A stretch of 64,000 bases of DNA from Escherichia phage vB_EcoS_MM-1, in the sequence record PV577657; one strand, 5' to 3'. Below the pieces are notes generated by a model, which was not told the DNA's origin, made no database searches, and was given only the letters and a program-made list of their open reading frames with translations. Position 1 is the first letter of the stretch. Every line of letters starts with the position of its first letter. Below, in pieces: positions 10,924 through 46,741 of the stretch. A program made the translations under genes and the position numbers.

Positions 10924-11439
10924 TTACTTCGCTTTACGTTTGCGAGCTGGTTTAGCAGATTTACGAGCGGAATCACCCGTGAACTTAATGCCTACGCCGT
11001 AACACAGAGCACGAACATTATCTTTACTATACTCTACGCCAAAGATATTTGGCTTAACAGAACCAAACTGTCCACGAGTATCACGCAATACATCTGCTGT
11101 TGGTTTACGCTTCTGGTTAACTGCCTTCTCATAGTCTTTCATAGACATACCATTACGAGAGAACAATTCAGCCCCAGCGTTGAAGCTCAGGGAAACTGGG
11201 ACAGATTTGTGGCCGTAATTTTCTACATACATAACCATTTTGTAGGATTTACGGGTGGCATTTTTAGCTTTAGGCTTCTGACGAATCGGAGCCGGATTAT
11301 TCAGTGCTTGCGCAGCCTGAGCATCAGTAGGATGCTTACGCAGGTGACGTTCCAGACGAGCTTTGCGATTAGCCTCAGTCTTCGGGAAAGTTTTAACTGC
11401 CGGAGCTGCTTGAGTTTTTGCGTTTTTCTGCTTAGCCAT
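10924..11439 (-). CDS. basic (K/R-rich termini) protein, possible nucleic-acid binding
   Basis: 171-aa ORF with Lys/Arg-rich N- and C-termini. Confidence 0.65.
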   Translation of the reverse strand: MAKQKNAKTQAAPAVKTFPKTEANRKARLERHLRKHPTDAQAAQALNNPAPIRQKPKAKNATRKSYKMVMYVENYGHKSVPVSLSFNAGAELFSRNGMSMKDYEKAVNQKRKPTADVLRDTRGQFGSVKPNIFGVEYSKDNVRALCYGVGIKFTGDSARKSAKPARKRKAK

Positions 11440-11444
11440 TATTT

Positions 11445-11514
11445 GTTTTCCTTTTTGTTTATCAATTTATGAAGTATATTATACGAGAATTTGAAGCGTT
11501 TAGCAAATGAATTT
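11445..11514 (-). promoter_or_regulatory. T5-type early promoter
   Basis: Minus strand TTGCTAAACGCTTCAAATTCTCGTATAATATACTTCATAAATTGAT. Confidence 0.55.
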
Positions 11515-11964
11515 TTAATTTATTAACTGTAAGCTTCTTTTAATTTCAGACCTTACTTGCATCAAAAGGACTCCTAAAGTATTATCCCCGATGCCTCGGC
11601 AAACACCCCAATATGTATCTCCCCAGGTATTTCCTTCGATCAAAGTTGCATTTTCTGTTGCTAACAGTTTATCTCTTAAATCAGGAATTGCAAACTTTAA
11701 TCGTAAAAGCTCTAGCATTACATCATCTTTTACTTTATCCCAGTCAGAGCGTAGGGTTAATTTACGTCCTATACGTTTAGCAACTCCTGCATTTAGGGAG
11801 CGAAGTACATGAGCTACATCATCTTTTTGGTCGGATTTCATAGCCTGAAAAGCATGTTCTACAGTATCAGCATGCCATATCTCATTTAGATATTCGAAAG
11901 TAATTGGTGATAAATAAAAGTTAGATAAGAAACTATAAGTACCTTTAAATTCAGTAATCTTCAT
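11515..11964 (-). CDS. NADAR (YbiA-like) domain protein
   Basis: Collinear YbiA/NADAR family motifs: FLSNFY, EHAFQAMK, DTYWG, LGVLLMQVR. Confidence 0.7.
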   Translation of the reverse strand: MKITEFKGTYSFLSNFYLSPITFEYLNEIWHADTVEHAFQAMKSDQKDDVAHVLRSLNAGVAKRIGRKLTLRSDWDKVKDDVMLELLRLKFAIPDLRDKLLATENATLIEGNTWGDTYWGVCRGIGDNTLGVLLMQVRSEIKRSLQLIN

Positions 11965-12245
11965 TTTTTACGCCCCGCATCTTTAGCCTCCTCGGCTGTA
12001 TAGATATACTGATAAGCCCCTTTGGAGTAGGCTGGAGCAGTACACATTTTCTTACGCTCAATCTCTTCTTGAGCTTTTCTTTCGCGTTCCGCTAATTCTT
12101 CGTCCAAATAAACTAAACGTTGTTCTGGAGGAGGTGGAAGACGTGTTTCTGGCTCGCCAATATTAGCCTTTCTTATTTGACGAGGTGATTGTGCACGTTT
12201 TCTCAATGGTTTAAATCCTAATGAATTTGAGTTATAGATCCGCAT
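11961..12245 (-). CDS. hypothetical protein
   Basis: 94-aa ORF, start overlaps upstream stop. Confidence 0.55.
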   Translation of the reverse strand: MRIYNSNSLGFKPLRKRAQSPRQIRKANIGEPETRLPPPPEQRLVYLDEELAERERKAQEEIERKKMCTAPAYSKGAYQYIYTAEEAKDAGRKK

Positions 12246-12322
12246 AAAGCCCTCCTCACTTTCAATACGAATATTATACTAAATTATAGGGCTTTAAGCA
12301 AGAGAATTTTTTAATTTATTTA

Positions 12323-12811
12323 TCACATCTCAGCCATTTCAGCTTCAGTAATAACTGTATTACATAAGGCGTCTACAGCTTCATTACCACTAATACCAGA
12401 GTGCCCTTTAACCTTAATAAAGGTAGGATTAGTATTATGAAAGTTGATATACTGTTGTGTTAATTTAAATGCTTCCTGCCAAAGTTCTAGATTAAGAGGA
12501 ACTTCACCATCTGCTTTCTTCCAGCCTTTCCTTTGCCAAGAAAACATCCAACTTTCCATGCCATTTTTGCAATAAGCAGAGTCAGTATAGATAGCAATTG
12601 GTCTATTATCTTTTTTAACAGACCAACGTAGAGCTTCTACAATAGCTGTGAGTTCCATCTCATTATTTGTAGTTTTAGGATTATAACCAGATTTAGAACC
12701 TAAACGATCGTCGTTATCATCATAGACAATAAAACCCCAAGCACCCGGACCTGGGTTAGACTTACAAGCACCATCTGTATAAATGTGGAAAACCGACATT
12801 ATACCTCCCAA
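12323..12811 (-). CDS. rnhA: RNase H (RNase HI-like)
   Basis: HIYTDGAC...GAWGF motif, conserved acidic residues; alternative start at MSVFHIY (about 12799). Confidence 0.8.
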   Translation of the reverse strand: MGGIMSVFHIYTDGACKSNPGPGAWGFIVYDDNDDRLGSKSGYNPKTTNNEMELTAIVEALRWSVKKDNRPIAIYTDSAYCKNGMESWMFSWQRKGWKKADGEVPLNLELWQEAFKLTQQYINFHNTNPTFIKVKGHSGISGNEAVDALCNTVITEAEMAEM

Positions 12812-13080
12812 CTAATTTTAAGACCCATGTCTACAAAGGCGGCTTCTCGGTAGTATTGTGAGAGATGATACCCCTTATCCGATAAGGTTTTTAGTACTGA
12901 TTTAGCTGCTCCTGGCATTTCTCTAGGATTATATAGCCACCTAGCGTAAGGATTATCTCGAATAATTACTTCTGTATTTCCAGACTTAGCAGCTTCTACA
13001 ATCTTTTCTTCTATAAACTTTAGAAATGCGGGTACTTCTGTTAATCCTGCAAGTTCTTGGGCTTCTTTGGCTGAAATCAT
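12799..13080 (-). CDS. hypothetical protein
   Basis: 93-aa ORF. Confidence 0.55.
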   Translation of the reverse strand: MISAKEAQELAGLTEVPAFLKFIEEKIVEAAKSGNTEVIIRDNPYARWLYNPREMPGAAKSVLKTLSDKGYHLSQYYREAAFVDMGLKISWEV

Positions 13081-13280
13081 GGCTTTTCACCTTCTGCTAC
13101 ACTTCTGGTTTTTGGTGGGATGGGAGGGTTAGGTTTTATAGCCGCTAATTCCCTATCTAAGAATTCCTCTATTGCTCTATCTACAAAGTAGTCATAGGGT
13201 AAATGATAATGTTCTGATAGAGTAAGAAGTTTGTGCTCTTGGCTTTCTGTTAAATAAACTTTCTTTCTAAAGAGTCCCAT
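13077..13280 (-). CDS. hypothetical protein
   Basis: 67-aa ORF. Confidence 0.5.
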   Translation of the reverse strand: MGLFRKKVYLTESQEHKLLTLSEHYHLPYDYFVDRAIEEFLDRELAAIKPNPPIPPKTRSVAEGEKP

Positions 13281-44922: not shown

Positions 44923-46741
44923 GACACTAAAATTTAGTAACGTTATGTCTTACGGTAAGGACATCGTAATTCATTTCGACAAGAATCCAGTTACTCAACT
45001 AATTGGTGGCAATGGGCTAGGGAAATCCACCATCGCTACGGTTATCGAGGAATTGTTTTATAACAAGAACTCACGGGGTATTAAGAAGGATGCTCTGTTC
45101 TCTTGGTCTTCTCCGAAAAAAGAGTATGATATGCACGCTTACTTCTCAAAAGATGAAGATGAGTATGAATTGCATAAAGTAGTTAAATCAACTGCTAAAG
45201 TAACCCTTATTAAGAATGGAGAAGATATTAGTGGACACACGGCGACCCAAACATACAAGATGATTGAAGAAATTATGGGTGGTGACTTCCAAACATTCAC
45301 CAAACTTATTTATCAATCAGTGGGTTCTAATCTAGACTTTCTAAAAGCAACAGATGCAACACGTAAGGCTTTTCTTGTCAACTTGTTCAATCAAGAACAG
45401 TACAAAGAAATGTCAGAAACTATTAAGGCTGACCGTAAAGAAATAGCAAATACCTTAAATAATTTGCAGGGCCAAATGGCTGTAATTACGAAAATTCTTA
45501 ATGGAAAGAATAACTTGGGAACTTTGCAGGAACCTGTAGAAGTACCGGAGTTTGATGAAGAGCCGTTAGCACAAGAACTTACTGAATCGAAAATTAAGGC
45601 GGCATTAGCCAAGTCTCAAGAGGCTAATATTACTAAATTGCGTAATTTGGACAAAGCTGTACAAGTTGCCGAACAATCTTTCGAGCCTTTCAAAAATTTA
45701 CCCGCGCCCACTGACCAAAATGAAGAGATCTCGAGTGTTACGCGTGACCTAACGATTGTGACCTCACGTGCGAGCGAAGTTAAGAAACGTTATCAGAAGT
45801 TCAAGCAAGAGGCTTCAAATACTGAATGTCCTACCTGTGGTACTCATCTGGATACAACTGCTGCGCAAAAAGCAATGGATATGGCTAGAACAGAATATGA
45901 TCCTCTGTTCAAAGAGAAGCAATCTCTTGAAGCTAAGCTAGAACAGTTGAAGAAGGAACAACTTGAGTACGTTGCGTATACTAGAGCAAAGGATGCTTTG
46001 GATAAGGCAGTGGTAGCTAGAGACGAGTTCAAAAATTCAATGAGTGATGCTTCTTTTGAAGAACTCAATGTGCAAATCCTACAGGTGCAAATCCGACAAT
46101 TAGAACAGGAAATAGCTGATGGACGTTCTAAGGTTGCAATTGCTAAAGAACATAATGCAAATATTGAGTTAGCCAATGCAAAATATAAGGCGAAACTAGA
46201 ACAGATTGAGAAAGCTGAGGCAGAAATGTCTGAGATTACATCCAAACTGGATGGAGTATCAGAAGCTGTTGCTGATCTCGATATTCTGATTGCTGCATTA
46301 AAGAATCTAGTAGGATATAAGCTAGAGCATAGTGTGAAAGTATTTGAAGAACTTATCAATAAATACCTTTCTATTATGACTGGCGGTAAGTTCGCACTTG
46401 GATTTGAACTTGATGAAACGAAATTGCAAGTAGTAATCTTCAATGATGGAAACCGTACCAGTATGGAGAATTGCTCTACTGGTCAGCAAAGTCGAATCAA
46501 CCTAGCAACTCTGTTAGCTATTCGAATGCTACTAACATCTATTAGTAAAGTTAATATTAATCTTCTATTCCTTGATGAAGTAATTAGCTTTATTGATACT
46601 AAAGGACTTGACACCCTTGTTGAATTATTAAATGAGGAAGAAAGTCTAAATTCTATCATTGTTTCTCATGGGCATACGCATCCATTAGCCCATAAGATTA
46701 CTGTCAAAAAAGATGCAGAAGGATTTTCCTACTTAGAATAA
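44903..46741 (+). CDS. SbcC/Rad50-like ATPase
   Basis: N-terminal Walker A GGNGLGKST, long coiled coil, C-terminal signature region; start MSKITIK overlaps SbcD end. Confidence 0.8.
   Translation: MSKITIKTLKFSNVMSYGKDIVIHFDKNPVTQLIGGNGLGKSTIATVIEELFYNKNSRGIKKDALFSWSSPKKEYDMHAYFSKDEDEYELHKVVKSTAKVTLIKNGEDISGHTATQTYKMIEEIMGGDFQTFTKLIYQSVGSNLDFLKATDATRKAFLVNLFNQEQYKEMSETIKADRKEIANTLNNLQGQMAVITKILNGKNNLGTLQEPVEVPEFDEEPLAQELTESKIKAALAKSQEANITKLRNLDKAVQVAEQSFEPFKNLPAPTDQNEEISSVTRDLTIVTSRASEVKKRYQKFKQEASNTECPTCGTHLDTTAAQKAMDMARTEYDPLFKEKQSLEAKLEQLKKEQLEYVAYTRAKDALDKAVVARDEFKNSMSDASFEELNVQILQVQIRQLEQEIADGRSKVAIAKEHNANIELANAKYKAKLEQIEKAEAEMSEITSKLDGVSEAVADLDILIAALKNLVGYKLEHSVKVFEELINKYLSIMTGGKFALGFELDETKLQVVIFNDGNRTSMENCSTGQQSRINLATLLAIRMLLTSISKVNINLLFLDEVISFIDTKGLDTLVELLNEEESLNSIIVSHGHTHPLAHKITVKKDAEGFSYLE

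Follow-up and report, generated by a model that had tools for sequence, protein, structure and literature searches.

An allele of the phage NADAR protein AdfN^Bas32 in Escherichia phage vB_EcoS_MM-1, a probable counter-defence against DarTG1

Results and discussion

The genome of Escherichia phage vB_EcoS_MM-1 (sequence record PV577657; the whole stretch of 64,000 nucleotides that was analysed is called the window) encodes a protein of 149 aa that is an allele of AdfN^Bas32 and very probably a minimal ADP-ribosyl-glycohydrolase with a single NADAR domain, acting as an orphan "antitoxin-like" counter-defence against DarTG1. A preliminary description made from the letters of the DNA had proposed an anti-DarT-type counter-defence factor, and this reading is supported: AdfN^Bas32, 147/149 residues identical, neutralises DarT1 and rescues phages on DarTG1 cells. 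The reading was correct, but it is conceptually nothing new, because the anti-DarTG1 function has already been published (2024-2025) for an essentially identical (99%) protein. The case confirms that a genuine anti-defence gene can be spotted from sequence alone.

The open reading frame and its surroundings

The gene and the reading frame directly upstream of it are:

11515..11964, minus strand: NADAR-domain coding sequence, 149 aa, orthologue of AdfN^Bas32 (reading frame, Pfam, homology, structure model)
11961..12245, minus strand: 94-aa ORF, homologue of T5.090, PHROG 4593, function unknown (reading frame, PHROG, alignment with T5)

The reading frame starts with ATG, and its 149 codons fill exactly positions 11515 to 11964 on the minus strand. 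The preliminary description had placed the frame correctly, naming no strand, and the four motifs it quoted are all present in the product: FLSNFY (residues 12-17), EHAFQAMK (36-43), DTYWG (116-120) and LGVLLMQVR (130-138). The gene has a GC content of 35%, versus 39% for the window, and its start is preceded at a distance of 9-12 nt by GGGG, a weak Shine-Dalgarno sequence. The surrounding 2.1 kb were 100% identical to Escherichia phage vB_EcoS_MM-2, and many genomes of T5-like phages (Tequintavirus) of E. coli and Salmonella shared 97-98% identity with them.

NADAR domain, fold and active site

The Pfam profile NADAR (PF08719) aligned residues 9-142 with profile positions 9-163 of 163 (E 1.8e-22). 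With 80.8 bits the match exceeds the gathering cut-off of 35.1 and is far beyond chance. The alignment to the YbiA/NADAR family, drawn by eye along the full length in the preliminary description, was thus borne out by the profile (E 1.8e-22, 80.8 bits), and the HMM comparison proposed there as a check was passed well above the gathering score. PHROG 1017, a family of unknown function, matched as well (E 8.8e-45). An AlphaFold2 model computed with 40 homologues as input (pLDDT 97.3, pTM 0.91) presented the YbiA-like alpha+beta fold, a helical core flanked by two small beta-hairpins. A Foldseek search of the PDB with this model retrieved E. coli YbiA (2B3W; E 1.8e-9, TMq 0.82, 37% identity) and the NADAR protein of Phytophthora nicotianae in complex with ADP-ribose (8BAU; E 1.6e-6, TMq 0.79), and no further significant match. 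Sequence search of the PDB likewise gave E. coli YbiA as the best match of solved structure (E 2.4e-15, 37% identity).

In the Phytophthora NADAR, ADP-ribose is contacted by E43, K50, R79, D86, W89, R93, E125, D130 and W133 (Schuller et al., PMC11543638). The equivalent residues of the window protein are, in the same order, E36, K43, R67, D74, W75, K79, E110, D116 and W119. Eight of the nine are identical, and the ninth is an exchange of R for K (K79). These positions were mapped with a HMMER alignment that was corrected by eye near the (S/T)xEH motif, and an offset of +2 in the PDB chain numbering was verified. E36, K43, E110, D116 and W119 are invariant across the 40 homologues. One position is diagnostic for the subfamilies: glutamate marks the YbiA/NADAR type, aspartate DarG1, and histidine the T4-like phage NADARs (PMC11543638). 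The window protein has a glutamate there, E110, which all 40 relatives keep. The N-terminal extension of the DarG1 type is lacking, because in the AlphaFold2 model the core begins at residue 2. By profile, predicted fold and active-site residues, the 149-aa protein qualifies as a bona fide NADAR-domain protein.

Two defence families were considered and rejected. The match to NCBIfam NF053876 ("DS32_2_antiphage, NADAR family anti-phage protein") scored only 45 bits versus a cut-off of 240, and that to PADLOC PDC-M42C, a candidate-defence NADAR component, was weak (E 1.3e-7). Matches to Drt5 in PADLOC were at noise level. From the weak matches to NF053876 and PDC-M42C, NADAR domains evidently serve the side of bacterial defence, too.

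Near-identity to AdfN^Bas32 and comparison with known NADAR proteins

The window protein and bas32_0066 of Escherichia phage IrisVonRoten have equal length and share 147/149 residues. IrisVonRoten and HildyBeyeler are, as we take from their locus tags bas32_ and bas33_, the BASEL phages Bas32 and Bas33. The two substitutions, T9 for A and I65 for R in the window protein, fall on positions that vary in the family; residue 65 is L, I or M in 28/40 relatives. The genes occupy the same slot in both phages, which belong to the same genus, Tequintavirus: rnh, 94-aa ORF, NADAR, P-H207, DUF7022. Identity and syntenic position together establish the orthology with AdfN^Bas32. The allele of the window combines T9, as in Bas33, with E104, as in Bas32, and its I65 is unique among five T5-like alleles compared. 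The NADAR proteins of Bas32 and Bas33 differ in RefSeq at residues 9 (A/T) and 104 (E/K), although they are called identical in PMC11825919.

The protein bas32_0066 is AdfN^Bas32 in Johannesman et al. (Nat Commun 2025, PMC11825919) and NADAR^Bas32 in the preprint (PMC11257639). Ectopic expression of AdfN^Bas32 from a plasmid neutralised the toxicity of DarT1 in uninfected E. coli and let RB69, T5 and Bas25 form plaques at full titre again on cells with DarTG1; T5 was not rescued on cells with the thymidine-modifying DarTG2 (PMC11825919). In the tree of these authors AdfN^Bas32 is located beside archaeal NADARs, outside the YbiA-like clade (PMC11825919). The published evidence found is from ectopic expression: neither an in vitro assay of purified AdfN^Bas32 nor a deletion of the NADAR gene in a native T5-like phage, such as Bas32 or Bas33, that sensitises it to DarTG1 turned up in the main texts. 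By analogy with the in vivo activity of AdfN^Bas32, the window protein probably hydrolyses guanine-linked ADP-ribose.

AdfN^T4 (gp30.3 of the T-even phages), too, is an orphan NADAR encoded by phages; it takes ADP-ribose off guanine and counteracts DarTG1. It belongs to another NADAR clade, close to DarG1, and carries a histidine at the diagnostic position in place of E110; the window protein thus lacks the T4-type signature. Outside the T-even context AdfN^T4 does not work, and in uninfected cells it fails to neutralise DarT1, which the Bas32-type protein achieves (PMC11825919). BLASTP and PSI-BLAST searches seeded with AdfN^T4 missed the T5-like protein (PMC11825919). The DarG1 antitoxins (BC4488 subfamily; E. 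coli C7, Geobacter lovleyi) are of the same superfamily and catalyse the same hydrolysis of N2-guanine-linked ADP-ribose (PMC11543638). They pair with a DarT1 gene, while the gene in the window has no adjacent DarT1, and they possess an N-terminal beta1-beta2-alpha1 extension and a catalytic aspartate (D171 in E. coli C7), whereas the window protein is without the extension and has a glutamate instead. No DarG1 structure was among the matches of the window protein in the PDB sequence or Foldseek searches. E. coli YbiA (2B3W), the closest solved structure (37% identity, TMq 0.82), has the minimal core and the catalytic glutamate in common with the window protein; unlike the phage gene, it is a chromosomal housekeeping gene in a LexA-controlled operon and gives cells no protection from DarT1 (PMC11125620).

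An accessory gene under purifying selection

Phage T5 is sensitive to DarTG1 (PMC11825919). Its annotation has the order T5.090, P-H207, T5.089, and there is no gene between T5.090 and P-H207. A three-way alignment of the window, Bas32 and T5 revealed at this place:

about 11530..11973, strand not applicable: segment of about 445 bp present in the window and Bas32, absent from T5 (gap columns 428-871)

The divergence from T5 reaches beyond this indel, to about 12031. The last 20 or so codons of the T5.090 homologue (about 11973..12031, minus strand), which abut the indel, diverge sharply from T5 and match Bas32; the inserted or replaced segment seems to take in the C-terminus of the upstream gene.

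The NADAR gene was found in 95 phage records with 94-100% nucleotide identity and an intact reading frame, IrisVonRoten and HildyBeyeler among them. Since 441 records matched the surrounding 2.1 kb, it is an accessory gene of roughly one fifth of the T5-like phage records. Five T5-like alleles had 6-22 synonymous and 0-4 non-synonymous differences; at a dN/dS of 0.03-0.09, the gene is therefore maintained by strong purifying selection. The genes around it encode RNase H, the 94-aa homologue of T5.090 and a DUF7022 protein. No gene for a DarT toxin or another ADP-ribosyltransferase was detected in the neighbourhood by reading frames, Pfam or PHROG, in agreement with the status of an orphan.

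A second NADAR protein is encoded by Salmonella phage vB_SenS_UTK0009 (OQ359889.1). It has 149 aa, is 60% identical to the window protein and sits between rnh and the T5.090 homologue, which is one gene upstream of the slot in the window and Bas32. Two diverged alleles at adjacent insertion points in an early-region hot spot of the Markadamsvirinae suggest that NADAR alleles were captured there repeatedly and independently. The nearest relatives outside the T5-like phages (50-55% identical, 140-143 aa) are on metagenomic contigs of 153 and 134 kb, amid many small same-strand reading frames. Genes for a dUTPase, DUF932, QueH, a nucleoside deoxyribosyltransferase and an IMPDH-like protein are among the neighbours. 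From these contexts, which resemble large phages, this NADAR clade seems to be largely phage-borne. Both relatives examined in the range of 50-60% identity lie on phage-like contigs of 130-155 kb and so do not point to any donor among bacteria or archaea.

Transcription unit and promoters

The minus strand from 12330 to 11430 was scanned for T5-type promoters (TTGCTT, TTGCTA or TTGACA, a spacer of 16-18 nt, TATAAT). Two perfect sites and one weaker site were obtained:

12301..12273, minus strand: T5-type early promoter, TTGCTT-17 nt-TATAAT, AT-rich upstream (custom scan)
11506..11478, minus strand: homologue of T5 P-H207, TTGCTA-17 nt-TATAAT (scan and alignment with T5)
11465..11438, minus strand: weaker T5-type match, TTGATA-16-AATAAT, one mismatch per hexamer, downstream of the NADAR stop codon

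The first site is intergenic, between rnh and the 94-aa ORF, and is the nearest promoter upstream of the pair of 94-aa ORF and NADAR gene. Its counterpart in the alignment with T5 is an annotated promoter (T5 46337..46411) that stands between rnh and T5.090. The P-H207 homologue begins 9 nt past the NADAR stop codon and forms the 3' boundary of the unit. By its sequence position, this site is the promoter of the DUF7022/T5.089 homologue (10924..11439) and not of the NADAR gene. Between 12245 and 11964, neither a generic sigma-70 scan nor the T5-specific scan found a promoter. A T5-type promoter of its own had been ascribed to the NADAR gene in the preliminary description. This claim was not borne out, because no site lies between the start of the upstream reading frame and the NADAR start; sites are present only ahead of the 94-aa ORF or past the NADAR stop codon. 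As the perfect sites coincide with the T5 promoters ahead of T5.090 and T5.089, the promoter adjoining the NADAR gene belongs to the next gene.

The ATG of the NADAR gene overlaps the stop codon of the 94-aa ORF by 4 bp (ATGA, 11961-11964). The 94-aa ORF is therefore a probable co-transcribed and translationally coupled partner, and the simplest view is an early unit of two genes with NADAR as the second cistron.

Proposed function and alternatives

Phage AdfN proteins strip the ADP-ribose mark from phage DNA and so permit replication. DarT1 ADP-ribosylates the N2 of guanine in DNA, and NADARs hydrolyse this N-glycosidic link (PMC11543638). On infection of a DarTG1 host by the phage, the DarT1 toxin would be unleashed and would place ADP-ribose on the guanine N2 amino group of the phage DNA, which would block replication. 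The phage NADAR protein, produced early, would cleave the bond between ribose and guanine, so that unmodified DNA is restored and replication can resume. The enzyme would act on the modification and not on the toxin. E110 and E36 may take part in the chemistry, while K43, D116 and W119 would hold the ADP-ribose. Expression would start early from the promoter at 12301..12273, and the gene sits in the early cluster for replication and nucleotide metabolism, thy, rnh, 94-aa ORF and NADAR. The expected specificity is for guanine-linked, not thymine-linked ADP-ribose; the protein should therefore work against DarTG1 and not against DarTG2. Neutralisation of DarT1 and rescue of phages are attributed to the window protein by analogy with AdfN^Bas32, and anti-DarTG1 activity is probably the main natural role of the gene in this phage. 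Two observations call for caution. The N-terminal extension has been proposed to bind DNA in DarG1-type NADARs (PMC11543638), and the window protein is without it. Although both E. coli YbiA and T4 gp30.3 are able to hydrolyse G-ADPr in vitro, neither protects cells from DarT1 (PMC11125620); activity in vitro alone is therefore no guarantee of a function in vivo. In practice, whether a T5-like phage can plaque on DarTG1 strains should be predictable from its carriage of the NADAR gene, also for candidates in the biocontrol of Salmonella and E. coli.

The role may extend beyond DarTG1. As a tentative addition to the proposed function, the enzyme might also erase cytidine-ADPr and RNA G-ADPr written by other ADP-ribosyltransferases of hosts or competitors, DarTG1 being one of several targets. 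E110 is the glutamate of the YbiA/NADAR type, neither the aspartate of DarG1 nor the histidine of T4. We know of no C-ADPr-writing defence in E. coli or Salmonella, which counts against this extension. NADAR and YbiA proteins of the glutamate type erased C-ADPr on both DNA and RNA, which neither DarG1s nor the T4 NADAR did (PMC12945103), and AdfN^Bas32 is independent of a phage-specific context, unlike AdfN^T4 (PMC11825919). With the catalytic glutamate kept and no phage-specific context needed, T5-like AdfN may therefore be a broad-spectrum eraser, also of cytidine- or RNA-linked ADP-ribose; that it protects against further enterobacterial ADP-ribosyltransferase defences or toxins is, by analogy, conceivable but rather doubtful. 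From the context of phage NADAR and Macro domains, Iyer et al. argued that NADARs of phages generally hydrolyse low-molecular-weight derivatives of ADP-ribose, for example immune signals made of cyclic or variant ADPr, or RNA-repair by-products (PMC9503650). The conserved ADPr-binding pocket would suit such substrates; yet no SLOG, Macro, Nudix or NAD-salvage partner adjoins the gene, and the DNA-linked role is directly evidenced for the near-identical protein (PMC11825919), which makes a small-molecule substrate very improbable here.

A metabolic N-glycosidase like YbiA, which destroys reactive intermediates of the riboflavin pathway or similar small ribosylamines and for which evading defence would not be a primary role, is very improbable. 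That YbiA is the best sequence match of solved structure (E 2.4e-15, 37%), that many records list orthologues under the name "swarming motility protein YbiA", "N-glycosidase" or "GTP cyclohydrolase II", and that TIGR02464 (riboflavin-intermediate N-glycosidase) matched with 69.6 bits would speak for it, but this score is just below the curated equivalog-domain cut-off of 73.7, and there is no riboflavin gene context, neither a RibA/RibD fusion nor such a neighbour, around this gene, which stands alone in an early replication cluster of the phage. Its presence or absence among near-identical phages is the typical pattern of anti-defence accessory genes, and the 99%-identical AdfN^Bas32 counters DarTG1 and was placed outside the YbiA-like clade (PMC11825919). 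Membership in TIGR02464 was rejected on score, context and literature. The absence of an own promoter, the weak Shine-Dalgarno sequence (GGGG) and the GC content of 35% versus 39% might suggest that the gene is a remnant left by horizontal transfer, without function or not expressed. This is hardly credible for a reading frame that is intact in 95 records, has a dN/dS of 0.03-0.09 and keeps every catalytic residue, and genes are coupled in a standard way by an ATGA overlap like the one with the upstream ORF. The function as an orphan anti-DarTG1 NADAR enzyme remains the best explanation.

Annotation in public records and neighbouring genes

The identification corrects many legacy annotations of the NADAR gene in T5-like genomes. 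The labels of orthologues in public phage records are inconsistent: "swarming motility protein YbiA", "GTP cyclohydrolase II", "N-glycosidase", "DUF1768" and "hypothetical protein". A single, recent record, Salmonella phage WP85, has "antitoxin-like enzyme, NADAR superfamily". Some names given to small genes nearby are implausible, for instance "tail length tape-measure protein" or "baseplate wedge subunit".

Between rnh and the thymidylate synthase gene are two overlapping reading frames on the minus strand, of 93 aa (12799..13080) and 67 aa (13077..13280), affiliated to PHROG 5321 and 17630, both of unknown function, and without Pfam match. T5 has only an annotated promoter in this interval, which looks like a second variable accessory slot near the NADAR gene. 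The RNase H frame (12323..12811, minus strand) was predicted with a TTG start and 162 aa, while T5 and Bas32 annotate 158 aa (477 nt). The 158-aa protein would start at the ATG at 12799 with a one-base overlap with the stop codon of the 93-aa ORF, another tightly coupled pair.
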